NCBI GenBank assembly: GCA_050288425.1
Contig: JBNKDU010000124.1
Span: forward strand, 48,711-112,710
Origin: Desulfobacteraceae bacterium
GTDB taxonomy: Bacteria; Desulfobacterota; Desulfobacteria; Desulfobacterales; Desulfosarcinaceae
Direction of reading: 5' to 3'
DNA length: 64,000 nucleotides
A program made the position numbers and the translations under genes. The notes under the pieces are model-generated. The model had not been told where the DNA came from. It saw nothing but the letters and a program-made list of their open reading frames with translations, and made no database searches. Below, piece after piece: positions 12,746 through 39,102 of the stretch (position 1 is the first letter of the stretch; the number at the start of each line of letters is the position of its first letter).

Positions 12746-12755
12746 GAGGCGATCC

Positions 12756-18175: not shown

Positions 18176-19248
18176 GGCTGTAGATCCTGTGGGTTGAGCA
18201 GTTCAAATATTTGAATGCGTTTGTTGTAGGTATCCGCAACGAAGATGCGGTCATGGTCGTCGATGTGCAGTCCGGCCGGCAGCCAGAATTCGCCCGGCGC
18301 CTGGCCCGATCGTCCCAGGGCCATGAGCAGCCGGAAGCGTGCATCGAAAATCTGTATATTGTCGAAGTTGGCGTCGGCCACGTAAATACGGCCGGCGCTG
18401 TCGGCGGCCACCCCCCGGGGGCGTGAGAACCTGCCGCGGCCGTCCCCGATGCTCCCGAACCCGCCCAGCGGCCGGCCTTCCGCGGTAAAGGTCTGGACTC
18501 GGAAATTCATGGCGTCGGTGACATAAACAGTACCGTCGGCGCCGGCATACAGATGGGTGGGGAAATGCAGTTCTCCCCGTCCCGTTCCGGATCGGCCAAA
18601 GGTGCCGCGCAGCTTTCCGTCTTTCAGTCCGAAGCGCAGGATCTCGTTGCGGCGCGTGTCCACCACCAGCAGTTCCCCGCTGACGGGATTGACGGCCAGG
18701 CCCGTGGGCCGGGTCAATTGCGTCTTTCCCAGCTCGCCCACGGCGCGCCGGCCTGCCAGGTCATAGATCTTCACCACGGCTTGCTGGGAATCGGACACGT
18801 AGATCTTGCCGGTATGCGGCTCCACGGCCACGGCCACCGGCGAAAGCAATGGTTCTTCTTCCGTGGGAATCAGGCGATAGCGGCCGGCCGGCATGTCGAA
18901 CAGATGGATCTTGCGAAGATAACTGTCCACCACATAGATTCTGCCGTCCGGATCGGTGGTGACATCGTAGGGGGACACCAGCACGTCCTGCTGGCGGCCG
19001 GCCATATAGCGAAGGAAGCGGTGCATGAAGGAAGCTTGAATGCCAAGGTCTCCGGGACCGGTGATGCTCGCCAGGTAGCGGATGCGCGCCGGTGCCGACG
19101 GCGGCGGCCAGACTCGCTGCGGCTCCGGAGCCGGCGGCAGCATGCCGGGGTGCTGACAGGCGGTCACCAGTACGAGGATCGAGAGCGCCGTCGCCAGGCG
19201 CACCTGTGGGCCAATGGCTGATGATAGGCGTGTCCGCGAAATTGGCAT
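18172..19248 (-). CDS. NHL-repeat six-bladed beta-propeller lipoprotein
   Basis: 358 aa with a lipobox-like LVLVTAC. Six repeats of the type (R/K)IYV(A/V/S)D...N.RIQ.F, e.g. RIYVVDSYLRKIHLFD, TVYVTDAMNFRVQTFT, RIYVADANFDNIQIFD, RIFVADTYNKRIQIFE. Confidence 0.85.
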   Translation of the reverse strand: MPISRTRLSSAIGPQVRLATALSILVLVTACQHPGMLPPAPEPQRVWPPPSAPARIRYLASITGPGDLGIQASFMHRFLRYMAGRQQDVLVSPYDVTTDPDGRIYVVDSYLRKIHLFDMPAGRYRLIPTEEEPLLSPVAVAVEPHTGKIYVSDSQQAVVKIYDLAGRRAVGELGKTQLTRPTGLAVNPVSGELLVVDTRRNEILRFGLKDGKLRGTFGRSGTGRGELHFPTHLYAGADGTVYVTDAMNFRVQTFTAEGRPLGGFGSIGDGRGRFSRPRGVAADSAGRIYVADANFDNIQIFDARFRLLMALGRSGQAPGEFWLPAGLHIDDHDRIFVADTYNKRIQIFELLNPQDLQP

Positions 19249-19270
19249 GATAATAAGGGTCGATCTCCTT

Positions 19271-21325: not shown

Positions 21326-21388
21326 GCGGAACCCGATTCTTCCGTTTTTGAGGGCAAATGGCTGTAGTCGCTATCCCGATTCATGAGG

Positions 21389-22495
21389 TTACGGCCGGTT
21401 TTCCGGTGAACCGACATATTCGCCAAACCCGTATACATTGATGCGATTGGGGCCGAAGCCGGAGGCCACGTAGACCACATATTCCAGCCGAAATCCCGGA
21501 TCGACGAAGTTGGCGAAATATTGGGCGTTGGCATAATCGATATGTACGCCTGCAGGCAGGTAGAGATTGCCCGCCCCGGTGCCGCCGCCGCCGAAATAGA
21601 GCAGCATGCCGCCGGAGTCGGCATCGAAGATCTGAACATTTTCAAATGCTGCGTCGGCCACGTACAAATGGCCGCTGTGGTCCACGGCCAATCCTTTGGG
21701 ACGGGCGAACGCGCCCAGGTTGTCCCCCGGAAAACCATAGGCCTTGACAAACCGGCCTTCCCCATCGAATTGCTGCACACGGAAATTGAAGGAGTCGGTG
21801 ACGAAGAGATGGCCACGGGGATCGACGGTTAGATGGGACGGCATGCGAAAGGCCCCCGGATCGGCACCGGTGCGGCCGATGCGCTGGAGCACCCTGCCGC
21901 TTGCGCGATCGAGCACCACCACCTGGTTGCGTTTGAGATCGCAGACATAGACGCGGTTTTCATATACCGCCACGTCCACCGGCCTTTCGAAGACCTCTGC
22001 ATTGCCGTATGTCCGCAAATAGCGGTTACGGTCATCGAAGACCACCACCTGTTTGCGCCCCATGTCGGCGATGTACTTGATGTCTTCGGGCGTGACCCAG
22101 ATACCCGACGGGTTCTGAAGGGCGCCCATGCCGGAGTCGGCCAGGGAGTCGATGCGTCGTTTGGCCAGATCGATGATGCGCAGCTTCCGGGGGTTGCGGT
22201 CCAACACGTAGATCTTGCCCGGAACCGAGGCCACATCATAGGGGCGCCCGATGAGTTCGCCGGTCGGCGCCTCTCCCAGCAGAAACCGGTCCCATTTGCT
22301 GCGGCGGCGACCCAAGTCCGCTTCCGCGCTGATGGTGTGCAGGTATTGCAGCCGTGGCCGTTCCGGCGGGGGTGGGTAGAAAACGATGGGTCGCTCCGCC
22401 TGGCGGGACGGGACCGATGCGCAGCCCCCGAGAATGAGCAGGGCCAGTGCGGACGCGGCCCATGCCCGCCACGCAAGCCGGGTGCGAATTTCCAT
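21389..22495 (-). CDS. NHL-repeat six-bladed beta-propeller lipoprotein
   Basis: I prefer the ATG at 22495 (MEIRTRLAWRAWAASALALLILGGCAS, lipobox LGGC), preceded by AGGAGA. The track ORF starts at 22540. NHL blades include KIYVLDRNPRKLRIID, RVYVCDLKRNQVVVLD, HLFVTDSFNFRVQQFD, HLYVADAAFENVQIFD. Confidence 0.85.
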   Translation of the reverse strand: MEIRTRLAWRAWAASALALLILGGCASVPSRQAERPIVFYPPPPERPRLQYLHTISAEADLGRRRSKWDRFLLGEAPTGELIGRPYDVASVPGKIYVLDRNPRKLRIIDLAKRRIDSLADSGMGALQNPSGIWVTPEDIKYIADMGRKQVVVFDDRNRYLRTYGNAEVFERPVDVAVYENRVYVCDLKRNQVVVLDRASGRVLQRIGRTGADPGAFRMPSHLTVDPRGHLFVTDSFNFRVQQFDGEGRFVKAYGFPGDNLGAFARPKGLAVDHSGHLYVADAAFENVQIFDADSGGMLLYFGGGGTGAGNLYLPAGVHIDYANAQYFANFVDPGFRLEYVVYVASGFGPNRINVYGFGEYVGSPENRP

Positions 22496-22553
22496 CTTCT
22501 CCTGATGAGATCGTAGGAATGTGCTTTGCGCCATGACCATCCTGTTCTGTCGT

Positions 22554-23189
22554 CTATAGATTGTGGCAGGTCAAACAAAGGGACGAAGCCGTATTGCTCT
22601 TGCGCAAGAGAGAGACCTGACCGAACTTGTTGTGCACATCGTGACACGACGCACACTCCATGCGACTTCCGAAAAGCATGTCGCTGAGAATGGTTCCCGA
22701 GCTGCCGTCCAGACCCGAAAGCGTGGTGGCCGGATCGCGCAGGCTGCCGTCGGCCAGGGCCAGGTCGGTATTGTAGACGAAAGAGATGGGGTGATCGTTG
22801 CTCAGGTCGGTGCCTAGATTGTTGCGTCCGCTGATCAACTGGCTGCCCGGATTGCCGCCGAATGCATCGATGGCGATGGTGCCGTCATGACACGACAGGC
22901 ACAGTTTGGATGGTCCGATGGGCTGATTCAGCGACCCGGCGGTGGTGCCCGCATCGAGAGTGTCGCTTCCGTAAAGGTTATAGACGGCCGTGGAAACCGC
23001 ATGGTTCCACATGGGGACGTTTTGGACGTCCGTGGATGTGTTGTGGGGCGCATGGCACGGCAGGCAAATTTCTCCCTGGGAGAATCCCAGCCCGCTGAAA
23101 TCGTGGGCGCTGCCCGCGATTTCGGCCATGGCAGTTGCGTAAAGGGCCAATACCAGCATGGTCGTGAAGATGAATAGATTCTTTAACAT
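22554..23189 (-). CDS. Secreted tetrahaem c-type cytochrome
   Basis: ATG at 23189 (MLKNLFIFTTMLVLALYATAMA signal). Motifs CLPCH, CLSCH, CASCH, CLTCH. The sequence is colinear with the N-terminal third of the 566-aa cytochrome (SAHDF..CLPCHAPHN..CLSCHDGTIAID..GTDLSNDHPISFVYN). Confidence 0.85.
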   Translation of the reverse strand: MLKNLFIFTTMLVLALYATAMAEIAGSAHDFSGLGFSQGEICLPCHAPHNTSTDVQNVPMWNHAVSTAVYNLYGSDTLDAGTTAGSLNQPIGPSKLCLSCHDGTIAIDAFGGNPGSQLISGRNNLGTDLSNDHPISFVYNTDLALADGSLRDPATTLSGLDGSSGTILSDMLFGSRMECASCHDVHNKFGQVSLLRKSNTASSLCLTCHNL

Positions 23190-23312
23190 GGGAACACCTA
23201 TCCTAGCTGATGGGCAGCAATTGCTGCATGAAATATGGAATTCGGCTTTCGGCCATTTTCGTGACGGCGTCACGTGTTTTGTGAAGCAAGTTTGCATGGG
23301 CATGGGTTCTCC

Positions 23313-26057
23313 TTATCCCTTCCGGCGTCTGGGATCGTGGTAGTAAAGATATCGGTACAGTCCCTCGGGTCCGTGGCACGCTGCGCAGACGGTGTTTGCG
23401 CTGCCGACCCGGAGATACTTGTTGAGGATATCGTCCGATTTCAATTTTACCATCCTTGTCCCGGATGCGACACCCTGGTGGGCGTTGTGGCAGGAAGGGC
23501 AGCCCAAATCGCCCACCCGCCGCCGGCGACCCTCGGCATCGAACAGCGGGAAGCCTTCGCCCGAGTCGGGGGCTCCCGGCCGGCGGATGGTGGACAACAG
23601 CCTGCCGGTGGGGTGTCCCGCGGCTTGCGGGACGCTTCGGGCGGCAATTTTCCCAGCCGCGTGGCAGCTTCGGCACAGCATGTTTACGCCGATCTCGTCG
23701 ACGTCCGGATCGGTCAGGGGTCGCGCCCACAGCTTCAAGGATCGGGGGCTGTTGTGCACGATATGGCAACCGCCGCAAACGCCGGATTCCGTCGGCGTCT
23801 GGCCCAGGACATTGCGCGATTCGGGAGCCGATACCGTCAGGTCGTGGGTGGTGCCGTCCACCCGCGACATCTTGGGATGGCAGTCCCTGCAAAGGGAAGA
23901 GTTGGCATTGTTGGGCCGCCGGAGAAAACTGGTAGTCGTATCGCCCTCGGTATTTACGGCGCCCGGGGATTCCTTGCGGCCAGCCGCACTCCAGACATGG
24001 GCATCGTGGCAGGTGGTGCAGACCATAAGATCTTCTTCCCCCTGCGGATCCGAGTAAAGCGGCAGGGCAGCCAAACCGCCGGCTTTCGGGGACATCCAGC
24101 GATTCTTGTTCTCAACCTTGCGGCCCACCGGATGGGAATTGTCATTGACCAGCTTTTTGTCTGCCAGGCCGCCGGGCCGATGGCAACTGGCGCATCGGCG
24201 GGTAACCGGATCGCCGCCCGGCCCCGGCGCAAGACCCCATAGACGGTCCGCGGTGCCCTGGTGGGGCGCATGGCAGCCGCTGCACGGATCGCTATCGGCC
24301 CGGATACCGAGGCTGTTGGTATGATCCGGGAAGATCTGCCCGATATGATGTTCGGTCATGGACACCCGGCCGTTACGGCGATGACAACCGACACAGAGCG
24401 CGGCCCGGTCCTGGTTGGCCATGCGCAGGAAACTGCTGCCTGCGTCGCCTTCCTGTTTCGGATCCTCGCTTTTCGCCAAGGCGCCCGGCCGCCAGCGGTG
24501 AACATCATGGCAGGTGGCGCACTGCATACTGCCTGAAGTCGATATGTCGCCTTTAGGAGTAAATCCGGGCAGCAATAGGGGCGAACCCGGGGCGAGGGCC
24601 ACGTTCAACGGATGGGAGCGGCCGGTGGTTTTTCCGGGACGCCAGGGCAAATCTCCGTGGCAGCTCAAACACGTTTGGGTGGCGGGGTGGCCCTGGTCCA
24701 GTGGGCGCGCCCACAACTTCCAGCCCATTGCGTTGTGCGGCAGGTGGCAAGCGCTGCAGGGACCGGATGCGGCCGCCGTGGCCGAATGGGTGTTGCGTAT
24801 CTCCGGGGCTGTATGAACCATGTTGTGCGCCGTGTCGATGACCGTGGCCTTGTCTTGGTGGCAGTTGAGGCACAAGGCCGAATTCCTGGCGCTGGGAACA
24901 CGCAGGAAACTGTTGCCGCCGTCTCCCTGACCATTCTCGGGAGGCAGCCTGGATTCATCCTCAGGCGCCCAGCGGTGGACGTTATGGCAGGTGAAACACT
25001 GCACCTTGCCCCGGTGGGCGGACGGCCTTCCATCGGTGAGATAGAGGGGCAGACCGTCGGCCGGCGGCTTGGCCGGCCGACGGTCCACCGAGTGCGATAC
25101 CTTGCCGATTCCGCGGGCCACGCTGTCGGGACCTTCTGAATGACAACTCAGACACATCCCCGAAGCCGGATTGGAATTGCCGATGTCCCGGTTCCACAGC
25201 CGCTTGCCGTTGGCGTCGTGGGGCGAGTGACATCCGCCGCAAGTGCCCCATTTGTAAACCTTGGCGTCCTTCTTGGTTTTGGGATCCAGGCGCAGGTCAT
25301 GACGGGTGCCGACGATGGTGGTCTTTTCTGCGTGGCAGGCCGTGCAAAGCGTGGCGCTGGTGTCGGCCATGATGCTTATTTTATCTCCACGGGCACCGTG
25401 AACGCGGTGGCAGGTCTGGCAAACCAGGGTGCGGCCGTCCGGTCCGATTTTGCTGCCGGCGGTCCGCAGCAATGCCGGCAGCTTGCGCGGCAGGGGTTTC
25501 AACGGGTGTCCGTTGGTGCGCTGAAAGTCGGCCTTGTCCTGATGGCACATGGCGCACAAGGTGACGGTAGGATTGCTGGTCCGCAGGAAGGAAGTAATTT
25601 CCAGCGGAATTTCGGCAGATTCCTCGGGACCGGTGTGGGGGGTATGGCAGGTGCCGCAGTAGAGTTCATCTTTCCGGCTCAGCGGCAGCGACGCAGGTAC
25701 GCTGACCTTTCGGCTGGGTTTGATCATGGAGGGATGAGATTTGCCCTTCCAGGCCACGGCGCGCGAGTCGCGAACGTAGCCATCGTGACAGGTGTAGCAA
25801 CTATCCTCGGAAGAGACCACCCCCTGGGTATTTTTCATCAGGACATTGCCCGGCTGCCAGGGAATCAACGTTTCCTGGGTGCTGCGGAACTCATCCAGCC
25901 ACATCACATGGCAGATCGCACAATCTCTCTTGGAAGATTGTTCCCTGGCGTCTACCGGAGATGCCAGCAGGAAGAGGATGGCCAGCAGGACCGGCCATCC
26001 GGCCGGCGCCGGGATCCTGGCAATTGGATAACGGGATATGGTCCGGTTCGGGTTCAT
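23313..26057 (-). CDS. Giant modular multiheme c-type cytochrome (22 CxxCH)
   Basis: 914 aa; signal ...GWPVLLAILFLLASPVDA. 22 CxxCH motifs counted: a 6-haem N-terminal region followed by four tandem modules of about 150 aa and 4 haems each. Conserved C-terminus CAACHGPEGLYRYLYYHD. Confidence 0.9.
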   Translation of the reverse strand: MNPNRTISRYPIARIPAPAGWPVLLAILFLLASPVDAREQSSKRDCAICHVMWLDEFRSTQETLIPWQPGNVLMKNTQGVVSSEDSCYTCHDGYVRDSRAVAWKGKSHPSMIKPSRKVSVPASLPLSRKDELYCGTCHTPHTGPEESAEIPLEITSFLRTSNPTVTLCAMCHQDKADFQRTNGHPLKPLPRKLPALLRTAGSKIGPDGRTLVCQTCHRVHGARGDKISIMADTSATLCTACHAEKTTIVGTRHDLRLDPKTKKDAKVYKWGTCGGCHSPHDANGKRLWNRDIGNSNPASGMCLSCHSEGPDSVARGIGKVSHSVDRRPAKPPADGLPLYLTDGRPSAHRGKVQCFTCHNVHRWAPEDESRLPPENGQGDGGNSFLRVPSARNSALCLNCHQDKATVIDTAHNMVHTAPEIRNTHSATAAASGPCSACHLPHNAMGWKLWARPLDQGHPATQTCLSCHGDLPWRPGKTTGRSHPLNVALAPGSPLLLPGFTPKGDISTSGSMQCATCHDVHRWRPGALAKSEDPKQEGDAGSSFLRMANQDRAALCVGCHRRNGRVSMTEHHIGQIFPDHTNSLGIRADSDPCSGCHAPHQGTADRLWGLAPGPGGDPVTRRCASCHRPGGLADKKLVNDNSHPVGRKVENKNRWMSPKAGGLAALPLYSDPQGEEDLMVCTTCHDAHVWSAAGRKESPGAVNTEGDTTTSFLRRPNNANSSLCRDCHPKMSRVDGTTHDLTVSAPESRNVLGQTPTESGVCGGCHIVHNSPRSLKLWARPLTDPDVDEIGVNMLCRSCHAAGKIAARSVPQAAGHPTGRLLSTIRRPGAPDSGEGFPLFDAEGRRRRVGDLGCPSCHNAHQGVASGTRMVKLKSDDILNKYLRVGSANTVCAACHGPEGLYRYLYYHDPRRRKG

Positions 26058-26067
26058 CGGAATTCCA

Positions 26068-27018
26068 TCAATGCCGCAATTGGATACGGCGAATGCGGTT
26101 GGCCCGCATCTCCACTACGTGAATGTCCGTTCCGTTTCCGGCGGCGATCAGACCCACCGGCGTTTTCAACCGATAAACACTGCCGCTGTCGCATACAACG
26201 CCCAGCAAGCGGCCCATATCGGAGAATACCTGGATCACCCCCATATAGCTGTCGCTGATATAAACGCGGTCCTGGTTATCCACCGACACGCCTTTGGGCC
26301 GGACCAGTCTTCCCGGCGTGACCCCCCAGCCGCCGATGGTGTTCAGAAAATTGCCGAAGGGATCGAATTTCTGGATCCGGGTATTGAGCACATCCACCAC
26401 CAACAGCTCGTTGAGGCTGTTCTTCGCCAGCATGGCTGGATAGCGGAATTGGCCGTTGGCCTCGCCATATCCCCCCCAGGCAGTCTGAAATCGGCCCTGC
26501 TGATCGAAGACCTTTATTTTATGGTTGTCGTTGTCCACCACATAAATCCGATTCTTCAGCCCCGAAGCCAGCACATCCACCGGGTCGGCCGGTTTTTCAC
26601 CGGCCGCAGTGGGCACATCGAATTGGGATCGATATTTCCCATTCAAATCAAATACTTGAATGCGCCGATTGCCGCTGTCGGCAATGTAAACGCGTCCCTG
26701 GGCGATATCGATGCCCAGGGGCAGTTGAAATTCTCCCGGCCCCTGGCCGGGGGAACCGAAAGCGGACACCATGTTGCCTTCGGCGTCGATCACCGCCACC
26801 CGGTGGTTGACCCCGTCCACGAGATAGTAGTTGCCGTTGGGTGCCACGGCCACATCGCTGGGTTGATCCACATCCAAATTCCACGACGTTTGCGCACTGA
26901 TTTCGATGCACTCCATGGCCGCGGCCGGCCGGTCCGTGGATAGTGCGGCGAGCAGAATCCATCCTGCGATCAACCCCCCGCGAGTCCACAGCCGTAGGAT
27001 TTGCCGCAGGGTCATCAT
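26068..27018 (-). CDS. NHL-repeat six-bladed beta-propeller protein (secreted)
   Basis: The ATG at 27018 overlaps the upstream gene's stop (ATGA). The track ORF start at 27201 is an extension. Signal MMTLRQILRLWTRGGLIAGWILLAALS. Blades include NYYLVDGVNHRVAVID, RVYIADSGNRRIQVFD, RIYVVDNDNHKIKVFD, ELLVVDVLNTRIQKFD, RVYISDSYMGVIQVF. Confidence 0.85.
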   Translation of the reverse strand: MMTLRQILRLWTRGGLIAGWILLAALSTDRPAAAMECIEISAQTSWNLDVDQPSDVAVAPNGNYYLVDGVNHRVAVIDAEGNMVSAFGSPGQGPGEFQLPLGIDIAQGRVYIADSGNRRIQVFDLNGKYRSQFDVPTAAGEKPADPVDVLASGLKNRIYVVDNDNHKIKVFDQQGRFQTAWGGYGEANGQFRYPAMLAKNSLNELLVVDVLNTRIQKFDPFGNFLNTIGGWGVTPGRLVRPKGVSVDNQDRVYISDSYMGVIQVFSDMGRLLGVVCDSGSVYRLKTPVGLIAAGNGTDIHVVEMRANRIRRIQLRH

Positions 27019-27890
27019 TTGGGCGAATCCTTTCCATCCGCAGGTTTTCCACCGGCCCGGGTATCGGATAATAGATCCGGCAGGTACCAGCTTTCGTATT
27101 TGGCCAACATACCGGTGATATTCAAATGGACCAGATCGGCGATGCGTTTTTCGCTGAAATCGAGGGTGCGGTAGTCGAGGATTCCGTTCTCGGCATGGCA
27201 AGCTTGGCAGTCGGGCCCCTTCGCCTGCGTGTCGGTGTGGAATTGTGCCGCCGCTGCCTTGCGTTCATCGTCGCCCAACTGCCCGCGGGCACGCAAAAAA
27301 TCCCGCGCCGATTGGCGCCGGGCATCTGCCGTCGCCGATGGGGGCCCGTCCGGCAAGGCAGGATCGACGGGCGTAATTTTGGAGAAGGCATCGTCAACCA
27401 TGGCCAGATACCCGGTTTTGTCATCGTAACGCGTACCGGCAAATGGGCCTTCGGGGGCCGGATCGATGGGGCTGGCCCAGCGGAAGACGACGCGATGATG
27501 ATCCTCCGTCTTTATATGACAGCTTTGGCAGGCCAAGTATTGGGTGTGCATATTCAGCAGGGCCCGAATCCGCTTGCTCTTGTTGTGGGGCATTTCCGAA
27601 TGGCAGATCAGGCACAGGGGTTGCTGCGACTCAGACAGCCCGGGGTAGCGGACCAGGTTGTGGAAATGACGGTGGCGGTCCAGTTTGGCCTGGCGCTGTT
27701 CAGCGGTCAAGACCGGCGCACCGGGAGCCGCATGCCGTCCGATCAGCGGTCGCAACAGCCCCGGGCCGTGATGCGAGAGGGTCAGATGATAAATAACGCC
27801 GGCACCCACGCACAGGGACATGGCCAGAAAAATCAGCCCGAGGATATAGGCCAGCAGGGGATGGTTTTTGGGGTGCTGCTCGTTTGTCAA
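27015..27890 (-). CDS. Membrane-anchored trihaem c-type cytochrome
   Basis: 291 aa. TTG start at 27890 with GGGAG 9 nt upstream; there is no ATG before the TM helix. N-terminal TM helix LLAYILGLIFLAMSLCVGAGVIY. Motifs CLICH, CQSCH, CQACH. Confidence 0.75.
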   Translation of the reverse strand: MTNEQHPKNHPLLAYILGLIFLAMSLCVGAGVIYHLTLSHHGPGLLRPLIGRHAAPGAPVLTAEQRQAKLDRHRHFHNLVRYPGLSESQQPLCLICHSEMPHNKSKRIRALLNMHTQYLACQSCHIKTEDHHRVVFRWASPIDPAPEGPFAGTRYDDKTGYLAMVDDAFSKITPVDPALPDGPPSATADARRQSARDFLRARGQLGDDERKAAAAQFHTDTQAKGPDCQACHAENGILDYRTLDFSEKRIADLVHLNITGMLAKYESWYLPDLLSDTRAGGKPADGKDSPK

Positions 27891-27896
27891 TCTAGA

Positions 27897-28907
27897 TTAC
27901 TCCCTATGGCCGCCCGGAATTCCGGCATCTTCCGCTGCAGCTTCTTCCCTGTCCTTTTCGGCGTCTTTCCTATTGGCGGCTACATCCCGTTGCCGATCTT
28001 CGAGTCCGACCAGCAAGCGCCTCATGTAAGCCCGCTCTTCCGGCATCTCTTCCAGATTGCGGATATATTCCAGGAAATGTTCCTCGATCTGGTGTTCCCG
28101 GGTAATCTTGCCGGTGAGAAACGTCCATTGCACGGGAAAGCGGCCCGGAACGAAGTGGACGTTGCCCCAGTGCCAGAAGGCAAGAACAATCAGAGCCATG
28201 ACAGCCTCGTCGGCGTGCATCAACCTGGCCAGGTCCTGAATCAGACCTGGGGCCGTGCGGCTGACTTCAGGATCTCCCAAAAGCACATCCGCGATGCTTC
28301 TGGGGATCACGCCGGACAATTGGTCCGGCAGCAGCAATGCCAATCCGGCAATGGTAAGGACCGCCGTACCCCAGATAATGGCCAGGTAGTGAATCTTCTG
28401 CTTGTACATGAATTTTTCCATCATGGGCCGCTGGGGCGTCCTTCCCAAGAAATATTGGATGTCCTGGAAAATATCTTTGAGATCTTGCAGCCGGGGCAAT
28501 TGCGTGCGCCGGTAGTCGAAACGACCCTGGATCAGTTGCAGGCCGGTTCCGCCGAGAATGGTGAGAATATGGTAGGCCGAGGCGAACATCATGACATAGG
28601 CGCCGATTCTGTGGATGGCCATGGCGTTGTCGATGCCGCCGTACAGGGCGATCACATAGGGGGACCAGAACTCGTCGCTGAAGTAAAGCGGCACCCCCGT
28701 GGATGCCAGCACGAGGAAGCTGACGAATACCAGAAGATGCTGAATGACGATATGAGGAGAATAACGGGGCAGGTCCCCATAGGGATTGGAGGCGACATGT
28801 TTATAGATATCCCTGGGAACGAAACCGACCCCCTCGACGAAAAATCCGCCCTGCGGCCGCGTTGTGCCTTCCCCGGTGCCATCGGTGGTGAGGATTGTTT
28901 CCGTCAT
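27897..28907 (-). CDS. Integral-membrane dihaem cytochrome b (FdnI/PhsC/CbcB-like)
   Basis: The ATG at 28907 overlaps the upstream cytochrome c gene's stop (ATGA). About four TM helices carry conserved His: HIVIQHLLVF, AIHRIGAYVMMFASAYHIL, and MHADEAVMALIVLAFWHW. Ends in a charged C-terminal tail. Confidence 0.75.
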   Translation of the reverse strand: MTETILTTDGTGEGTTRPQGGFFVEGVGFVPRDIYKHVASNPYGDLPRYSPHIVIQHLLVFVSFLVLASTGVPLYFSDEFWSPYVIALYGGIDNAMAIHRIGAYVMMFASAYHILTILGGTGLQLIQGRFDYRRTQLPRLQDLKDIFQDIQYFLGRTPQRPMMEKFMYKQKIHYLAIIWGTAVLTIAGLALLLPDQLSGVIPRSIADVLLGDPEVSRTAPGLIQDLARLMHADEAVMALIVLAFWHWGNVHFVPGRFPVQWTFLTGKITREHQIEEHFLEYIRNLEEMPEERAYMRRLLVGLEDRQRDVAANRKDAEKDREEAAAEDAGIPGGHRE

Positions 28908-29986
28908 GATGGATTGTCTCCCGCGGAGGATGGGTGCCCTCGCCATGAGGACCCCTGATACAGCACGAATCGGATGCCGTTTCGCTTGCGGCCAAAGGTT
29001 TCCAACAACAGCAGGCCCATCAGGCCTCCCATGGTCCCGTACAATACCAGACGCAACATCAGGTTGATGATGTAGATAACCGGATTTTCATCTTTGCCGG
29101 TTTCCGGGTGCACCGCCACGTTGACGAACCAGTCGTTGGTCCGCTGGTGGCACTGCCGGCAGGTGGTCCGCAGATTGTTGGCGTTGATGGAGGCCCGGGG
29201 ATCTTCCTTGGCAAAGATATCGTGCAAGGCATTGCTGGCATGGCAACTGAGGCAATCGGCGGTCCTCTCCGATCCCAGCATGATGGCCTGGCCGTGTATG
29301 CTGCGGGAATAGGTGGCCACTGCTTTCATCGATCTTGGACTCAGCTGGAAAGGCGCCAACAGCCGCTGGTCGGCATGGCAGTCGGCACACAGGCGATCGA
29401 TTTCCACCGGCAAACGCGTGGTTTTTTTGCGCAGGCGGTGGGTGACATGCATGTACGCGCGGGTTACTCCCTCCTGCTGGTGGCAATTGAGGCAGCGTTT
29501 CAACGTCCGTTCGTAAGAGATCCGTTCTTCCAGGGGTCTGGCCAGCAGGGGGTTGAGATGGCAGTATTTGCAGTCCGGTCGGGCCTGGCGCATTTCCGGC
29601 GTATCCTCCGGTTTGGGGGCATGCACGCTGCTGTTGAACAGGTCCGCGATTTTGCGGTGGGAGAAGACATCGTCGGCAAAGGGGGGTCTGACATGGCAGG
29701 CCGTGGCGCAATCGACGTTTTGGCTGATCGGATCGTGGGGTATCTTGCGGATCGAGGTGTGGCACTCGCGGCAACCGACGCTGCGGTGGACGCTATGGGC
29801 GTACATGGTAGGGTCGACATGATAGGTGATCCGCCGGCCCGTTTCATCCATTCTTCCCAGGTACGGGTATTTGTGGCACATCAGGCAGTTCTCCTTGTCC
29901 GCACCGACTGCCCAAACCGGCGAGAAGTTGGATAACAGGCCCCATAGGATTGCCGCAGCGATCGATATTTTGAGACGCGAATCCAT
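28904..29986 (-). CDS. Multiheme c-type cytochrome with C-terminal membrane anchor (7 CxxCH plus 1 Cx3CH; CbcA-like)
   Basis: 360 aa. Signal MDSRLKISIAAAILWGLLSNFSPVWA. Motifs CLMCH, CRECH, CATACH, CKYCH, CLNCH, CADCH, CLSCH, CRQCH. C-terminal TM helix VIYIINLMLRLVLYGTMGGLMGLLLL. Confidence 0.85.
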   Translation of the reverse strand: MDSRLKISIAAAILWGLLSNFSPVWAVGADKENCLMCHKYPYLGRMDETGRRITYHVDPTMYAHSVHRSVGCRECHTSIRKIPHDPISQNVDCATACHVRPPFADDVFSHRKIADLFNSSVHAPKPEDTPEMRQARPDCKYCHLNPLLARPLEERISYERTLKRCLNCHQQEGVTRAYMHVTHRLRKKTTRLPVEIDRLCADCHADQRLLAPFQLSPRSMKAVATYSRSIHGQAIMLGSERTADCLSCHASNALHDIFAKEDPRASINANNLRTTCRQCHQRTNDWFVNVAVHPETGKDENPVIYIINLMLRLVLYGTMGGLMGLLLLETFGRKRNGIRFVLYQGSSWRGHPSSAGDNPS

Positions 29987-30030
29987 GAATTTCGTTCACC
30001 TATCGGTTAATTCATAACCGGTCCGCCCAC

Positions 30031-30954
30031 CTATAAGCGATGGCATTCGATGCACAACCGGCCGGGCAGGCGGTGCCGGTATTTGGAACCGGCACCTTTT
30101 GCGCTGGGCCGTGACGCAGGGATAATGCCTTGGTCGTGGGGGTTGTGGCAGGTGATGCAAGTCAATTTGCCTTCGGCGTCCAACGGCAGAATGATGTCGA
30201 ACTTGGCTTCCATCTTTTTCATGACCCCCAGCATCTTTTCCGAAGGCTTAACCAGGTGGTTGAAATTGCCGGAATGTCTGCCTTCGATTCGATGACACCG
30301 TTGGCAGATCATTTCCAGATCGCCGACATATTCCAGCGAGGCGTACGTGTCGGTTTCGGTGTTCGGCACGGAGGCATGGCAGTAGAGGCAGGTTTGCTCC
30401 TTAATTTCACCGGATTCTAATTTCTGCAGGTGAGGATTAAAGGCCTGGTAAATATCGGGGTTGTGGCAACGAAAGCAAATTCCCGTGCGGTTGGCATAGG
30501 GTGCCCCGCGCACCGAGTTTTTCTCAAAATCCCGCCGCGAGCATTGGTAGTGGATATCGTGGCAGGTCAGGCAGGTGATTTTCCCTTTTTCCAACGGAAA
30601 CTCCCGGGGAATTCTCGCTGCCAGGGCATTGGACGGCACAATCCCCACCGGGTGTACATAACGTTGGGGGTCATGACATTTGCACAGCAGATTGTAGTCC
30701 CCCTTGTATTTGAGCTGGCTATCGCTTTTTCCTGCGGGAACGCGGACGTGACAGGCCTTGCAGTACTGTCCGGTATAATGAAAGGGGCCCTGGGTCCAAC
30801 CGTCCCAGTCTTCTTGCGATGCGGCGTGACAGACTGTCTTGGCGATAAGGATTACCAGGACCAGAGCAACGAGACTCAGCACCCTTCCCATGGTTTGGGG
30901 GATGCTCTTCTCGACTCCGGTGGACCGGTGGAGTATGAGGCGAGAAGGAACCAT
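30031..30954 (-). CDS. Secreted heptahaem c-type cytochrome
   Basis: Motifs CKACH, CLTCH, CFRCH, CLYCH, CQRCH, CITCH, CIECH. Hydrophobic signal GRVLSLVALVLVILIAKTVCHA. The start is uncertain: ATG at 30954 or 30891. The track start at 31083 is TTG and adds an implausible 64-aa extension. Confidence 0.8.
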   Translation of the reverse strand: MVPSRLILHRSTGVEKSIPQTMGRVLSLVALVLVILIAKTVCHAASQEDWDGWTQGPFHYTGQYCKACHVRVPAGKSDSQLKYKGDYNLLCKCHDPQRYVHPVGIVPSNALAARIPREFPLEKGKITCLTCHDIHYQCSRRDFEKNSVRGAPYANRTGICFRCHNPDIYQAFNPHLQKLESGEIKEQTCLYCHASVPNTETDTYASLEYVGDLEMICQRCHRIEGRHSGNFNHLVKPSEKMLGVMKKMEAKFDIILPLDAEGKLTCITCHNPHDQGIIPASRPSAKGAGSKYRHRLPGRLCIECHRL

Positions 30955-31079
30955 CGTCTTTTCAACCCTTCCATCAATCATGGGGTTTGGCAATAGCTTT
31001 CTCCTGATCCTCCTCTCATCGGGAGGCAATTCCTGCAATTGCGCAAAATGCGATAACGCGCATCGTGAAGACGGACAAA

Positions 31080-33362
31080 TCAATTCACCTTATGTTGTCC
31101 AGGGGGCCCTGGACGGCGCCACAGTTCGCGTTTTTCAGTGTCGTGAAAATAGAGATACCGAAACAGACTATCGATACCATGGCAATCCATACAGAGGATT
31201 TCACTGCTCGAGTTGCGCAGGAAACGAAATCGCACTTGCACCGGGTAAGGATCGGCGGGGTGCGGCGCGGCAGCGGGCAAATGTCCGTTGTGGCATGTTG
31301 GACAACCGATATCGCCAACCCGCGTGCGATGTCCGAGATCGTCGAAAACGGGCGTGGACTTTTCCCTGCCCCGGGTGGGGTCTGCATGGCCGGCGACCAA
31401 TTTGCCGGCTGGGTGGCTGGCGATGGCCGGAATTCTTTTCTCGGCTGGTTTGCCCCTGGCGTGGCAGCTGGTGCACAATCCGCCGATGGGATTTACGTTT
31501 TCGGATAGCGGTCCATACTCGCGGGCCCACAGCCGCATGGAGTTGGGGCTGTTGTGGGGCAGATGGCAGGCGCCGCAAAGACCGGAGGATTGAACGGTCT
31601 GGCCCGCCAGGTTAGTCGCTTCCGGCGCTGTGTTTCTCAGGTCGTGGGAGGATCCCGCCATGTTGGCCTGGGCCATGTGGCAACTTTTGCACAGATCCGG
31701 TTCCGGCGCGTTGGCGATGCGCAGAAAGCTGTCGGCGGCCGTGCCCTCGACATTTGCGGAGTATGAATCGGCGTCGGGAGAGGACCGCCGGCTCCAGATA
31801 TGTGGTTCGTGACAGGTCAGGCAGACCATATTCCGGTCGGGATTCCGGTTCCCCTTGTCATCGTACCGCGGCAGGGTCGGGGCGATGTCCCCGCCACCCG
31901 GCCGCAGGGCGGCCAGGGAAACATGGATCGGGTGGTCGTTGCCGCCCACCAGTTTGTTTTTGGCGGATCCCCGGGCGTTATGGCATGAGGTACAAACCTG
32001 GGAGGCCCAATCCTCATCGGCTGTCAGCGGTCTGGCCCACAGGCGTCTCTGCGCGGCGTGATGCGGCACGTGGCAGGTGCTGCAGGGGCCTGCATTCTCC
32101 GGGGTCATCGATAGCGCGTTCTTCTCCAGGGGGGCCGTGATCCCAAGATTGTGGTCGGAGGTGAGCAGAGGTCGTTTGTCCGAGTGGCAGGTGACGCAGA
32201 GCGCGGAAGTGCCGTCGTTGGCTATTCTGAGAAAACTGTTGCCTGCGTCCCCATCCACCTTTACGTCGCCTCCATTGGCGGTGGCGTTCGGGTCCCAGCG
32301 ATGCACGTTATGGCAGGAGAAGCATTGCACGCTTCCGGTGGGTGTTTTGACGCCATTGGCGGAAAACAACGGCAGGTGGACGCCGCCGGCATATCGATCC
32401 TTCGGTCTTACGTTCACCGGATGGTTGTATTGTCCGAGACGTTTGGCTTGCAGTTCGCCATTCTCGCCATGACAGGTGAGGCACATCTGCTTGGCCGGCG
32501 GGTCGCCCGTCAAGGGACGGGCCCAGATTTTATTGCCGGCGGCATGATGGGGTACATGGCAGACGCCGCAGGGGCCTGATTTCACCGGCGTCTGGTGGCG
32601 GATGTTTTTGAGGTTGGGGAACTGCGCGCGCATGTCGTGTCTGGAATTCAGGAGACCGGCCTGCTCCTGGTGGCAGGTCAGACACAACGCGGATTTGGCT
32701 GTGGACGCTGTCAGAGCGCGCTTTCCGTGTGCCTGGTGGCAGGATTGACAGATCATCTCTCCTGCCGGACTGAATTTCGCACCCAGCTCGGCCGCTTTAA
32801 TTCTCGATTGCGCCTTGACGACTCTCAGCACCGGATGGCTGGCGCCCTCCTTTCGGCCGGTCCGGTTTCCGTGACAGGCGACGCACAGCTGGGATTTATC
32901 GTTGTCCATGCGCATGAACGCCGTACTGCCCACCTGGGCACTGTCTTTGAAATCGTGCAGCGTGTGGCAAGTGCCGCAGTAGATCTCGTTGTCGCTGTCC
33001 AGCCGCAGGATATCCGGGAGCTTCAGATTTTCCGGCACCTTCTTGAGCAGATGATGGGGATTGTCGGCCTCCACGGTGAGCCGGCTGTCGACCACATAGC
33101 CGTCATGACAGGTGATGCACATGGATTCGGTGGAGACCAGGCCGGTGGAACCGGCCACCACGATGGGCGATGCGGTTTCGGGCACCAGGGTCGCCTGGTG
33201 GGTCTGAACGGCGTCGAACCACGACACATGGCATAGCAGGCACTCTTTGTCGGCACGTCGGGTCAGGGCCTGGGCCGGCGCCGCCGTGAGCAGCCAGCCG
33301 CAGAGCAGCAAAAGGGACCATGCCCATGAAAGCGTTTTTTTATGGACGTGAATGGGGATCAT
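31080..33362 (-). CDS. Giant modular multiheme c-type cytochrome (18 CxxCH), paralogue of 23313-26057
   Basis: 760 aa; signal LSWAWSLLLLCGWLLTAAPAQA; GAAGGAAG SD. 18 CxxCH: the same 6-haem N-terminal region plus three 4-haem modules. C-terminus CMDCHGIDSLFRYLYFHD matches the paralogue. Confidence 0.9.
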   Translation of the reverse strand: MIPIHVHKKTLSWAWSLLLLCGWLLTAAPAQALTRRADKECLLCHVSWFDAVQTHQATLVPETASPIVVAGSTGLVSTESMCITCHDGYVVDSRLTVEADNPHHLLKKVPENLKLPDILRLDSDNEIYCGTCHTLHDFKDSAQVGSTAFMRMDNDKSQLCVACHGNRTGRKEGASHPVLRVVKAQSRIKAAELGAKFSPAGEMICQSCHQAHGKRALTASTAKSALCLTCHQEQAGLLNSRHDMRAQFPNLKNIRHQTPVKSGPCGVCHVPHHAAGNKIWARPLTGDPPAKQMCLTCHGENGELQAKRLGQYNHPVNVRPKDRYAGGVHLPLFSANGVKTPTGSVQCFSCHNVHRWDPNATANGGDVKVDGDAGNSFLRIANDGTSALCVTCHSDKRPLLTSDHNLGITAPLEKNALSMTPENAGPCSTCHVPHHAAQRRLWARPLTADEDWASQVCTSCHNARGSAKNKLVGGNDHPIHVSLAALRPGGGDIAPTLPRYDDKGNRNPDRNMVCLTCHEPHIWSRRSSPDADSYSANVEGTAADSFLRIANAPEPDLCKSCHMAQANMAGSSHDLRNTAPEATNLAGQTVQSSGLCGACHLPHNSPNSMRLWAREYGPLSENVNPIGGLCTSCHARGKPAEKRIPAIASHPAGKLVAGHADPTRGREKSTPVFDDLGHRTRVGDIGCPTCHNGHLPAAAPHPADPYPVQVRFRFLRNSSSEILCMDCHGIDSLFRYLYFHDTEKRELWRRPGPPGQHKVN

Positions 33363-33368
33363 CTTCCT

Positions 33369-34316
33369 TCACTGCAACGCATACACACTGACCATGTTCA
33401 GCGTCGATTGGACGACATAGAGCCGCTTATCCGAGTCGATGGCAATTCCCAGCGGTGTGACCAGCCGCAGGTGGCCGGGGCCGTCCGGCGAAGCCAATAT
33501 GCCACGGAACCGTCCCGTGGGTTCGAACACCTGAATCACTCCGGTGTAGCTGTCGGATATGTAGACGCCGCCGTCGCCGTCCAGGGCGATCCCTTTGGGG
33601 CGATAGAGCTGGCCGGGCAGCACGCCCAGTTGCGAGATTTGCCGCGGGTTCCCGCCGCCGGCATCGAACACCTGGACACGTCCGTTCAAAATATCGACGA
33701 CATAGAGATCGTCGCCGTCACGGGCGGCCATCATGCCGGGGAACCGCAGTTGTCCTTTCTGGTTTCCCATGCGGCCCCATCGGGCCGTCAGACTGCCGTC
33801 GGCCGCAAATACCATCACCTGGTGGTTGCGGGCGTCGCTGACGTAGATCCGCTTACCGCCCTGCCGGGCTTCCACCTCCACCGGCCGCGATTGCCAGGGT
33901 TTCAGGTCGATCTGGCGCTGGAACTTGCCGGTGCGGCCGAAAATCTGGATGCGCTGGTTCCCGGTATCCGCCACGTAGATCCGGCCCGCTTCGTCGATAT
34001 CGATGCCCACGGGGCTGTGGAATTGGCCCGCCTCCCGGCCCTGGCGGCCGATGGCGCCGATGTAGCGCCATTTGGCGTCGAACATTTTGACCTGGTGGTT
34101 GGCGCCGTCCAGCACATAGAGCCGGCTGTCCGGACCCACGGCGACTTCCGTGGGTTGATTGAAATCCTGTCGGATATCGGCGAGATGTTTCACCTGGATG
34201 GGTCGAACGGTTTCGCCGACGGCCGGCTGGGCAGTGGCGATGCCCGCACCGCCGATGGTCAGGCAAAGCCAGACCCACAAACCCGAGGTGATCTTGGCAA
34301 GACGGTTTTCGATCAT
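33369..34316 (-). CDS. NHL-repeat six-bladed beta-propeller protein (secreted)
   Basis: 315 aa. The ATG overlaps the upstream gene's stop (ATGA). Signal SGLWVWLCLTIGGAGIATA. Blades include RLYVLDGANHQVKMFD, RIYVADTGNQRIQIFG, RIYVSDARNHQVMVFA, DLYVVDILNGRVQVFD, GVYISDSYTGVIQVFE, RLYVVQSTLNMVSVY. Confidence 0.85.
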   Translation of the reverse strand: MIENRLAKITSGLWVWLCLTIGGAGIATAQPAVGETVRPIQVKHLADIRQDFNQPTEVAVGPDSRLYVLDGANHQVKMFDAKWRYIGAIGRQGREAGQFHSPVGIDIDEAGRIYVADTGNQRIQIFGRTGKFQRQIDLKPWQSRPVEVEARQGGKRIYVSDARNHQVMVFAADGSLTARWGRMGNQKGQLRFPGMMAARDGDDLYVVDILNGRVQVFDAGGGNPRQISQLGVLPGQLYRPKGIALDGDGGVYISDSYTGVIQVFEPTGRFRGILASPDGPGHLRLVTPLGIAIDSDKRLYVVQSTLNMVSVYALQ

Positions 34317-35284
34317 CGATTCTTGTCCGAAGTCGCCCGCGGCGGCATCCCGGTTTTCTGGCCGGCCGCCGACTCGATTTGCTCTTTCAGCCTGGAGATG
34401 ATCCGGTTCACACTGTCCCGGTTCGCCGGGTCCGTATCGAACAGGCCCGGCTCGAGCGCCTGTTTCACCTTCTCGCGGATCTGGTTGTTGCGGATCCCGA
34501 AGGCCATGGAAATGATGATGGAGTTTTGTTCCTCTTCTCTCCGGGAGGCCAGGTGGGAGACAAACACCTTGGGAGCGGTGAGAAACATGTCCACGAACAT
34601 ATGCGATAAATACTCGGCGGGAAAACCATAGGCGTTGGTGGAATAATCGAACAATGCCTGGAGGATGGTTTCGTCCTGCCGGTAGGCGAACAGGTCTGCC
34701 AGGTAGGAGAGAAAGTTCATGATATCGATGATCGCCTGGGAGGCCTCCACCGCCTGGGTCGGGTCCGCATTGCCGTCGTATTGCGGCAGAACCCGCAGCA
34801 GGAAGTCGCGGTTTTGTTCGTACCGGAACCCCCGTCTGGCCGCCATGAAGGCCAGCAGCGCCTTCTCCCGGTTCTCCCAGCCGCTTTGTTGGTTCAGGTT
34901 GTCGATCAGTCGATTGGCCACCGGCAGGTCGTGCTCGTCCAGCAGGCGCAAGGCGTCGCAGATGGTTTCCGTGCGGGTAAAGTAGTCGAATCGCGTGCGG
35001 GCGTGGATGGCGTCGCGGTCTTTTAGGATCTTCTGCAGCACATCGATGCGGTTCTTGGTGTCGAAACGCATGCCGATGTTGTCCAGGGCGATGATATCGG
35101 TGCGGTCCAGGGGGTAGCCGATCTTGATCAGGTTTCGAATCAAATTGCGGGTGTTGTAGTTCTGGGCCTGCGCTTCAGGGGGTACGATGCCGGACAGGGC
35201 GATCGTGAACAGCACCACCGCGCAGGCGATGGCGGCGGGCAGAAGCATGAGCCTCCGGTTCCGGACGTCGTGGATCCGGCCCAT
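34313..35284 (-). CDS. Hypothetical exported or membrane-anchored protein, no recognisable family
   Basis: ATG at 35284, preceded by GAGGGA; the track start at 35308 is TTG. N-terminal hydrophobic segment LMLLPAAIACAVVLFTIALSG, then about 300 aa of apparently helical, haem-motif-free sequence. Translationally coupled to the downstream NHL gene. Confidence 0.55.
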   Translation of the reverse strand: MGRIHDVRNRRLMLLPAAIACAVVLFTIALSGIVPPEAQAQNYNTRNLIRNLIKIGYPLDRTDIIALDNIGMRFDTKNRIDVLQKILKDRDAIHARTRFDYFTRTETICDALRLLDEHDLPVANRLIDNLNQQSGWENREKALLAFMAARRGFRYEQNRDFLLRVLPQYDGNADPTQAVEASQAIIDIMNFLSYLADLFAYRQDETILQALFDYSTNAYGFPAEYLSHMFVDMFLTAPKVFVSHLASRREEEQNSIIISMAFGIRNNQIREKVKQALEPGLFDTDPANRDSVNRIISRLKEQIESAAGQKTGMPPRATSDKNR

Positions 35285-35304
35285 GGTTTCCCTCGTATCG
35301 GAAT

Positions 35305-36726: not shown

Positions 36727-36803
36727 GACGGCTCCTTTCCCCAACCCCTCGGCAAGCGCTCTGTCCATGGCCCGTTTGCCATCCTTCTTATGCGGCGTTC
36801 GGG

Positions 36804-38102: not shown

Positions 38103-38139
38103 GAATGCGATTCCTTCTTCCAACCCGACGATGGCCGGA

Positions 38140-39057: not shown

Positions 39058-39102
39058 GCGTTCCTGTGATCGGTCTGGCAATTTATACATTGTGGGCCGA
39101 AA

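Follow-up and report, generated by a model that had tools for sequence, protein, structure and literature searches.

Giant cytochromes of tandem OmcE-type tetrahaem units beside the sulfate-reduction genes of a Desulfobacteraceae bacterium, and their possible role as periplasmic haem wires

The stretch of DNA analysed here (the window, 64,000 nucleotides; positions 48,711 to 112,710 of contig JBNKDU010000124.1, GenBank assembly GCA_050288425.1, from a Desulfobacteraceae bacterium) encodes two giant multihaem cytochromes, designated A914 and B760, which are the subject of this study. An earlier reading made from the letters alone (the sequence-only reading) had described them as paralogues of 22 and 18 haems, built from tandem four-haem modules and differing by exactly one module. 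Its coordinates, lengths and haem numbers for the two open reading frames (ORFs) were right, and both ORFs lie on the minus strand. The parts of the two proteins, assigned to module classes as explained below, are as follows (aa, amino acids; HMM, hidden Markov model).

23313-26057, minus strand: A914, 914-aa giant of 22 haems, with a signal peptide, a 6-haem head, four OmcE-type modules and a His-bearing tail.
25332-26057, minus strand: signal peptide and 6-haem head of A914, aa 1-242, checked by translation.
24858-25331, minus strand: A914 module 1, aa 243-400, class 1 (module HMM, class HMMs and translation).
24381-24857, minus strand: A914 module 2, aa 401-559, an extra, chimeric module, class-2-like up to column ~40 and class-1-like from there on.
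23877-24380, minus strand: A914 module 3, aa 560-727, class 2, missing from the closest 18-haem relative (P0004).
23373-23876, minus strand: A914 module 4, aa 728-895, class 3 (terminal), from class HMMs and translation.
23313-23372, minus strand: C-terminal tail of A914, GPEGLYRYLYYHD..., with a His 12 residues past the last CxxCH His, a putative cap ligand of the last haem.
31080-33362, minus strand: B760, 760-aa giant of 18 haems, with a signal peptide, a 6-haem head, three OmcE-type modules and a His-bearing tail.
32670-33362, minus strand: signal peptide and 6-haem head of B760, aa 1-231, checked by translation.
32184-32669, minus strand: B760 module 1, aa 232-393, class 1 (module HMM, class HMMs and translation).
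31677-32183, minus strand: B760 module 2, aa 394-562, class 2 (module HMM, class HMMs and translation).
31179-31676, minus strand: B760 module 3, aa 563-728, class 3 (module HMM, class HMMs and translation).
31080-31178, minus strand: C-terminal tail of B760, GIDSLFRYLYFHD..., with His740 12 residues past His728.

A914 harbors 22 CxxCH motifs that contain all 44 of its cysteines, and B760 harbors 18 such motifs and 37 cysteines, the sole extra one belonging to the signal peptide. After the 6-haem head, the spacing of the motifs is periodic (38, ~30, ~53 and ~42 residues), and cutting the proteins after every fourth CxxCH yielded four units in A914 and three in B760, which are 158-169 aa long, show 28-45% mutual identity and have the non-haem landmarks H..P, PH, LWARP, HP, LP..G, HxW and SFLR in common. 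All motif strings quoted in the sequence-only reading for the head, the module and the C-terminus were found in the two proteins. The "common C-terminus" that it had listed as a separate part is likewise present as a motif, but the CxxCH within it turned out to be the fourth haem of the last module. An HMM built from 390 modules of family members, with a module length of ~160 aa, recovered all four modules of A914 in full, at 130-160 bits each, and all three of B760, at 135-180 bits. Global alignment placed a single 161-column gap in B760, as expected for a difference of one module, the extra unit of A914 being 159 aa long compared with a total length difference of 154 aa. The architecture of both proteins, that is a head, a number of modules and a tail, was thereby confirmed. 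Furthermore, the independent assembly Logan SRR36185847 contained identical proteins in the same gene order, indicating that the locus is not an assembly artefact.

In BLASTP, A914 matched B760 at 36% identity in either of two registers that are shifted by one module (E~1e-125 each), so that the two are colinear homologues in pairwise and global alignment alike. Because the spacing of CxxCH motifs might by itself produce such similarity, a control was applied in which every Cys and His was masked and the other residues were shuffled with the Cys and His positions fixed. Most module pairs still scored z = 3-43, showing that the modules are homologous beyond their haem-binding motifs, as the sequence-only reading had proposed; the third and fourth modules of A914 formed an exception (z = 0.7), both being connected through modules of B760. 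The same test gave z = 12 for the A914 head against the B760 head. Haems 3-6 of the head resemble a module in motif order, with HMM matches of 25-35 bits and the second BLASTP register, but this similarity vanished upon masking (z from -0.8 to 2.7), and the idea that they form a degenerate extra module was rejected.

A profile of 36 modules was searched against all sequences in the PDB, and its best match was the nanowire subunit OmcE of Geobacter sulfurreducens (7TFS, E = 1.2e-10), followed by OmcE of Desulfuromonas soudanensis (9YUQ, E = 9.8e-10) and OmcS (6EF8, E = 3e-7), while the remaining multihaem proteins scored E = 1e-4 or worse. In addition, hhalign compared a profile of 68 modules with 24 OmcE/UetA-type tetrahaem units drawn from the window and related loci, giving a probability of 99.6% and E = 1e-23, with module columns 3-163 aligned on positions 1-188 of the 192 of the OmcE unit. 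This end-to-end coverage indicates that one module corresponds to one mature OmcE. Across both module alignments (36 and 68 modules), the four CxxCH motifs, H11, H41, H83 and R148 are invariant, W49 and L147 are invariant or nearly so, and H123 is invariant among the 36 modules and at least 90% conserved among the 68. Each module therefore combines its four CxxCH motifs with four more conserved His, arranged in the same order as in OmcE, which is enough for four bis-His haems and agrees with the published description of OmcE homologues (Petersen et al. 2025). By these profile comparisons, the repeated module is homologous over its entire length to OmcE, the tetrahaem nanowire subunit, which lends independent support to the "haem wire" of the sequence-only reading. 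An AlphaFold2 model of one module, computed without haems from the 68-sequence alignment, reached a predicted local distance difference test score (pLDDT) of 85 and a predicted template modelling score of 0.77, with ~15% helix and otherwise mostly coil; OmcE has been published as likewise low in helix and mostly coil.

The likeness to OmcE extends to the order of an N-terminal His, four CxxCH and three further distal His, and to the W, HP, PLF/Y and FLR landmarks. Moreover, the cluster partners of OmcE, namely beta-propeller lipoproteins and a large barrel, also adjoin A914. The giants differ from OmcE in several respects. OmcE is a ~200-aa monomer that polymerises via an inter-subunit His-haem bond, whereas the giants are covalently joined units, three to four of them here and at least eight elsewhere in the family. 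They also possess a preceding 6- or 8-haem head and a closing His-bearing tail, lack a free N-terminal His arm and are linked to inner-membrane modules.

Other assignments were considered and discarded. Pfam and NCBIfam returned for A914 and B760 only generic multihaem matches or matches below cut-off. The MtrA/DmsE decahaem family reached 58.3 and 56.5 bits, compared with the TIGR03508 cut-off of 192 bits, and the MtrC domain II/IV, Cytochrome_C7, NrfB-like and DmsE assignments were motif-driven or below cut-off. A polymer cytochrome of the c7 type (GSU1996-like) was rejected as well, since the period is four haems rather than three and the unit is OmcE-type. GSU1996 and GSU0592 reportedly consist of tandem trihaem c7 domains in one polypeptide, for which a role as a periplasmic wire or store is said to have been proposed; their unit is a trihaem c7 domain, whereas that of the giants is the four-haem OmcE type.

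The junctions between modules are strictly conserved. Across 115 family proteins with 390 junctions, the distance from the fourth CxxCH His to the first His of the next unit was exactly 11 residues at 384 junctions, and the distance from the last CxxCH His to the tail His, within the conserved motif (F/Y)RY.Y(F/Y)H, was 12 residues in 111 proteins. According to published work, two neighbouring subunits of an OmcE filament each contribute one His to the interfacial haem, and a unit that caps the filament end would need "nine histidines and four hemes" (Petersen et al. 2025). The last module of the giants together with the tail comprises nine His and four haems. In addition, the OmcE-type proteins of the window carry an arm His 7-8 residues past the predicted signal cleavage site, while in the giants the first CxxCH follows ~10 residues past the predicted cleavage site with no His before it. 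A914 and B760 thus lack the free N-terminal His arm and, presumably, the unsatisfied last haem of a polymerising subunit. This pattern suggests that the junction His (+11) would ligate the fourth haem of the previous unit, as the N-terminal His of OmcE does across the subunit interface, and that the tail His would close the very last haem of the giant. With a tail His and no free His arm, the chain appears to be self-capped and should not polymerise.

Outside the motifs, 17 invariant His were counted for 18 haems. A near-invariant Met of the head (Met74 in A914, window ~25836-25838) is a candidate for the missing ligand, and one head haem of A914 may be His/Met-ligated through it. B760 has Val69 at the corresponding position, with His55 nearby instead, so that a terminal haem may be ligated differently, and have a different potential, in the two proteins.

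With A914 as query, a word-indexed search revealed 637 proteins (E<=1e-10). In the 120 top-scoring ones, 18 CxxCH motifs were counted in 83 proteins, 22 in 18 proteins, 28 in 12 proteins, 17 (through motif loss) in 4 proteins, and 31, 32 and 34 in one protein each. Proteins with a 6-haem head have 18 (6+3x4) or 22 (6+4x4) haems, and those with an 8-haem head have 20, 24, 28 or 32 haems, that is 8 plus those of 3, 4, 5 or 6 modules. When 1.84 billion cluster representatives (50% identity clustering) were searched exhaustively by HMM, 5057 of them proved to have the module, 345 at E<=1e-30. Full modules range in number from one to eight or more per protein, and CxxCH motifs from 7 to 48; the variation in module number for which the sequence-only reading had suggested a survey is therefore real. 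The largest counts include 48 CxxCH in P0243 (2047 aa), 37 in P0245 (2427 aa) and 38 in a 1639-aa protein (L063, 8291-13210) with an internal duplication of a dihaem unit and two modules.

Whole modules have been gained or lost recurrently in this family. A914 shows 59.5% identity to the 18-haem protein P0004, from which it differs by its module 3, and B760 shows 50-52% identity to the 22-haem proteins P0028 and P0026, from which it differs by 161-162 columns. A neighbour-joining tree of head and last module, computed without support values, distributed the 22-haem proteins over up to 8 clades and implied at least 18 changes of haem number. By class HMMs built from modules 1, 2 and 3 of 18-haem proteins, all 18 of the 22-haem proteins examined start with a class 1 module, which is followed by one of class 1 or intermediate character and then by a class 2 and a class 3 module. 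In the second, extra module, class-2-like sequence over the first ~40 columns gives way to class-1-like sequence over the remainder (mean of the 18 22-haem proteins, and also in A914), as unequal crossover between modules 1 and 2 would produce. The common chimeric breakpoint argues for one gain of the 22-haem form followed by losses; a single origin was nevertheless not adopted, because the tree scatters the 22-haem proteins over several clades. Module number would thus change by unequal recombination between repeats. The claim of the sequence-only reading that the wire length is "tuned" by module duplication or deletion stands as regards the gain and loss of whole modules, which is a trait of the family, but adaptive tuning of length is not supported, as none of the observations points to length, as opposed to redox or partner specificity, as the target of selection. 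Likewise, A914 and B760 did not prove to be recent duplicates. They are only 36-40% identical to each other, and each is nearer to proteins of other genomes (66-69% and 59.5% for the closest relatives of A914, 50-52% for those of B760), indicating old paralogues rather than a recent local duplication; they also belong to different cassette types.

The two giant genes are part of a run of 17 genes, from 40038 down to 16475, that share the minus strand; neighbouring genes are no more than 64 bases apart or overlap slightly. The other genes of this run are listed below in the order of transcription.

39103-40038, minus strand: 4-haem cytochrome of the B760 cassette, in the quinone module 36804-40038.
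38140-39090, minus strand: exported (twin-arginine translocation) 4Fe-4S DsrO-like protein of the B760 cassette (NCBIfam DsrO, 199.8 vs a cut-off of 200 bits).
36804-38123, minus strand: DsrP/NrfD-type membrane protein of 10 helices, B760 cassette (DsrP, 402 vs a cut-off of 350 bits).
35305-36768, minus strand: octahaem cytochrome of the B760 cassette (Pfam Multi-haem_cyto, Cytochrome_C554).
34313-35308, minus strand: 331-aa protein of the B760 cassette, no family match.
33369-34316, minus strand: NHL beta-propeller directly upstream of B760, no lipobox.
30031-31083, minus strand: 7-haem c5 of the A914 cassette, in the inner-membrane module 27015-31083.
28904-29986, minus strand: 7-haem c6 with a C-terminal hydrophobic helix, A914 cassette.
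27897-28946, minus strand: cytochrome b, A914 cassette.
27015-27890, minus strand: 3-haem protein with an N-terminal anchor, A914 cassette.
26068-27201, minus strand: NHL beta-propeller directly upstream of A914, no lipobox; 316 aa in the public annotation.
22554-23303, minus strand: OmcE homologue, tetrahaem nanowire-subunit-like, full length (7TFS, E = 1e-22; 9YUQ, E = 1.8e-24).
21389-22540, minus strand: NHL beta-propeller lipoprotein, lipobox LGGC.
19271-21325, minus strand: 684-aa putative outer-membrane beta-barrel with a signal peptide and a C-terminal Phe, its role suggested by the position in an OmcE/Uet-type cluster.
18172-19248, minus strand: NHL beta-propeller lipoprotein, lipobox VTAC.
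16475-18175, minus strand: 11-haem UetJ-like cytochrome, its first ~200 aa an OmcE-type unit (E = 4e-28).

The NHL proteins that flank the barrel candidate thus carry lipoboxes, and both giant-adjacent ones are without. In the quinone module of the B760 cassette (36804-40038), the cytochrome that precedes the DsrO/DsrP-like pair is a 4-haem rather than a trihaem DsrJ-like protein, and no DsrMK is adjacent. The octahaem cytochrome also gave a weak match to hydrazine dehydrogenase (63 bits vs a cut-off of 900). The c6 and cytochrome b pair upstream of A914 resembles, as we presume, the CbcBA-type quinone oxidoreductase of Geobacter; it differs from Geobacter CbcBA and CbcL in that a 3-haem anchored protein, an NHL protein and a giant invariably come after it. 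The OmcE homologue ends right past its fourth CxxCH and has a conserved His 7 residues past the predicted cleavage site; its 249-aa ORF probably starts later, an independent gene call giving 211 aa. The whole cytochrome island, ~24 kb, lies between sat (40134-41405, minus strand) and aprA-qmoABC (9177-16305, plus strand), which are core genes of dissimilatory sulfate reduction. With an AprA that shares 89% identity with its counterpart in Desulfococcus multivorans, the host most likely belongs to the Desulfobacterales and reduces sulfate.

The lower part of the run resembles published outer-membrane clusters. In the minimal OmcE cluster (Petersen et al. 2025), OmcE is accompanied by a large beta-barrel, a pair of beta-propeller lipoproteins and two multihaem cytochromes, and all six gene types are adjacent in the window at 16475-26057, the barrel being a predicted one and the two cytochromes being the 11-haem protein and A914. 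The 684-aa barrel candidate had no match in Pfam, NCBIfam or the PDB. The region 16475-23303 is also similar to the Uet cluster of 'Ca. Tenderia electrophaga' (uetABCDEFGHIJ) in its UetA-like tetrahaem protein, two NHL proteins, large barrel and UetJ-like 11-haem protein. No UetB isomerase, UetDEG trihaem c7 or UetF cupredoxin was detected among the 20 cluster proteins, and the published description of Uet contains no giant cytochrome of the A914/B760 family. The 11-haem protein has an N-terminal His arm and an internal His 10 residues past its fourth CxxCH, so that its N-terminal unit has "nine His, four haems", with 7 more haems after it. This protein might serve an OmcE-type filament as a stopper or adaptor; such a stopper was sought by Petersen et al. 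2025, who found one only outside the OmcE cluster.

Long haem chains have also been reported from other lineages. The PCC3 clusters of Gallionellaceae encode a periplasmic cytochrome of 21, 24 or 27 haems, proposed to span the periplasm, and an extracellular one of 10-35 haems. By published haem counts, these are similar to the giants in being long linear cytochromes of variable haem number, and differ in haem steps of 3 rather than 4, in gene set and in lineage. In the sulfate reducer Desulfovibrio ferrophilus IS5, the genes DFE_0448-0451 and DFE_0461-0465, encoding multihaem cytochromes and NHL propellers, were induced under electron-donor starvation, and Fe(III) oxide reduction was unimpaired once those cytochromes had been deleted; the likeness to the giants, in gene content only, lies in the combination of cytochrome and NHL genes.

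To place the two cassettes in context, 80 loci from species-representative genomes, all metagenome-assembled genomes (MAGs) or uncultured bacteria, were surveyed. They belong to phyla and classes including Nitrospirota/Thermodesulfovibrionia, Desulfobacterota, Gammaproteobacteria (e.g., Thiohalophilus), Marinimicrobia, Lentisphaeria and Deferribacteres. Of the 76 giants in other loci, 74 have an NHL gene as their direct upstream neighbour, the giant-adjacent NHL proteins are without a lipobox in 76 of 78 cases, and the order c6-cytochrome b-c8(-NHL-giant) was found for 54 of the 62 giants with enough upstream sequence. The B760-type cassette recurs in the same order in four loci (L029, L059, L074 and L080). 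Moreover, two giants occur together in 16 loci, 14 of which combine one protein of 18 haems with one of 20, either giant having a cassette to itself. Paired unequal wires are thus a common theme, of which 18+22 is the version of the window. Tandem c6-cytochrome b-c8-NHL-giant cassettes were observed in L007, L012, L016, L017, L020, L022, L025, L028, L033, L037, L042, L051, L055 and L071, the first giant having 18 haems (6-haem head) and the second 20 haems (8-haem head), or 19 in L012, where one motif is lost.

Homologues of the 684-aa barrel candidate are rare, only nine being found among 5.8 billion proteins, and jackhmmer with the barrel revealed none in the 80 genome loci. Those examined, on independent metagenome contigs, show the order NHL-giant(20 haems)-OmcE-NHL-(5-haem protein)-barrel-NHL-11-haem, with the small 5-haem cytochrome as one addition compared with the window. 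The 684-aa protein is presumably the large outer-membrane barrel of OmcE/Uet-type clusters. Two of the homologues (L083, 9489-11867; L085, 9238-11589) lie between two NHL genes and end in a C-terminal W, where the window protein has F. In the Thiohalophilus/Chromatiales MAGs L049, L050 and L053 (~12500-22000), which represent Gammaproteobacteria of the sulfur-oxidiser type, an 18-haem giant cassette is directly followed by a UetA-like tetrahaem gene, past which lie two NHL genes and several unassigned ORFs, one of them encoding ~580 aa. Relatives of the Tenderiales thus have a giant cassette next to a uet-like cluster.

Taken together, these data suggest, with a probability of about 0.6, that the giants are self-capped single-chain haem wires of the OmcE type that bridge the periplasm. 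Their periplasmic location, their length as wires, and the direction and purpose of electron flow are here proposed from sequence. Each giant would exchange electrons at one end with its own inner-membrane quinone module, which for A914 comprises cytochrome b and haem proteins and for B760 a DsrOP-like module and the octahaem protein. The other end would reach the OmcE/Uet-type outer-membrane module of tetrahaem subunit, two propeller lipoproteins, barrel and 11-haem protein. The soluble NHL propeller could be an obligate partner of the giant, as a scaffold or chaperone, and the host might either donate electrons to minerals or partners or take electrons up. OmcE filaments have a published helical rise of 34 Å per four-haem unit. 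At this rise, 18 haems would span ~15 nm and 22 haems ~19 nm. Lengths of ~15-19 nm are of the order of the Gram-negative periplasm.

Several observations weigh against such a bridge. OmcE itself is extracellular, and the high-haem proteins of D. ferrophilus are predicted to be so. Most loci, in particular the tandem cassettes of Nitrospirota, contain no recognisable OmcE or barrel gene within 10 kb, and an OmcE/Uet-like cytochrome was found within 4 kb downstream for only 11 of 60 giants. Haem number is independent of cassette type, cytochrome b cassettes being associated with 18, 20, 22, 24 or 38 haems, and one haem of the head is without an invariant His partner. As regards structure, the full-length AlphaFold2 model of B760 (25 homologues, no haems) had a mean pLDDT of 41.8 and was unusable, and Foldseek found no match in the PDB, 7TFS included, for the module model of pLDDT 85. 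The Foldseek result was judged uninformative, because the same failure has been published for OmcE and OmcS.

A more specific proposal is that the giants are self-terminated OmcE nanowires, related to the filament subunits by fission or fusion and unequal crossover, and that they form a fixed periplasmic link from quinol to the OmcE/Uet module. In such proteins the covalent +11 His junction would reproduce the inter-subunit His-haem bond of the filament, the C-terminal His tail would be a built-in "stopper", and filament subunits and giants would be two states of one evolutionary unit. The proposal is tentative, with a little less than an even chance of being correct.

Alternatively, the giants might be secreted, surface-bound or extracellular wires exported via the barrel, as OmcE subunits are, which would let the cell reach beyond its outer membrane and would serve as short, pre-assembled nanowire stubs or as the base of an OmcE-like filament. 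The homology of the module to an extracellular filament subunit is consistent with this, as are the conserved position of A914 directly upstream of the OmcE-like gene and barrel, the predicted extracellular proteins within the cytochrome and NHL clusters of D. ferrophilus, and the extracellular cytochromes of 10-35 haems in PCC3 clusters. However, the giants are tightly linked to inner-membrane quinone modules and to NHL proteins that are not lipoproteins, no barrel gene occurs near B760 and most family members, and proteins with a capped C-terminus and no N-terminal His arm would be unable to give a His to a filament or to receive one from it. An extracellular location is for these reasons considered unlikely, albeit the strongest of the alternatives.

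Less probable still is that the giants act in electron storage or as parallel routes specialised for redox potential, with module number setting capacity or potential range rather than length. Giants of different haem number, each with its own quinone module, do recur side by side (18+20 in 14 of 16 loci), which resembles the potential-specific ImcH, CbcL and CbcBA of Geobacter, and other large multihaem cytochromes have been suggested to act as capacitors. Yet such roles are compatible with wire function, redox potentials are not derivable from sequence, and the linear, insulated haem chain that the homologous OmcE forms makes conduction along the giants the likelier function. Lastly, that the repeats are only apparent, or stem from a recent duplication within the genome plus a one-module indel, is hardly credible and already refuted on the sequence comparisons, for although spurious motif-driven similarity is common among multihaem proteins and the generic Pfam matches (Paired_CXXCH_1, Cytochrome_C7) are of that kind, the Cys/His-masked z values of up to 43, the position-specific module classes kept across 100+ proteins, the 36-40% identity of A914 and B760 with much closer relatives elsewhere, and their different cassette types all speak against it.

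Modular wire cytochromes, variation of haem number in porin-cytochrome clusters and clusters of cytochrome and NHL genes are already known. No cytochromes of tandem OmcE units were found described in the literature, the coverage of which was incomplete, with the original OmcE and archaeal nanowire papers outside it, so that an earlier mention is possible. Within that coverage, what was not found described is the OmcE filament subunit as a covalently linked repeat, with conserved His junctions and tail and in cassettes with quinone modules.

It is unsettled by which route electrons cross a periplasm on the 20-nm scale to reach outer-membrane conduits and nanowires, and how OmcE-type filaments are anchored, started and terminated. 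The family of A914 and B760 provides a concrete candidate for the periplasmic link, in several phyla and so far in uncultured genomes only. It also constitutes a natural series of wire lengths made from one unit (18, 20, 22, 24, 28, 32, 38 and 48 haems), which could serve to measure how conduction scales with haem number and could guide the design of protein wires of fixed length, the packing of the unit being known from cryo-electron microscopy. In the window, OmcE-type machinery is tied to a core sulfate-reduction locus, which bears on electron uptake, corrosion and syntrophy. If the giants are indeed self-terminated OmcE nanowires, they would be the missing periplasmic link between dedicated quinol oxidoreductases and the OmcE/Uet-type nanowire machinery of the outer membrane in sulfate reducers, Nitrospirota, sulfur-oxidising Gammaproteobacteria and Marinimicrobia.

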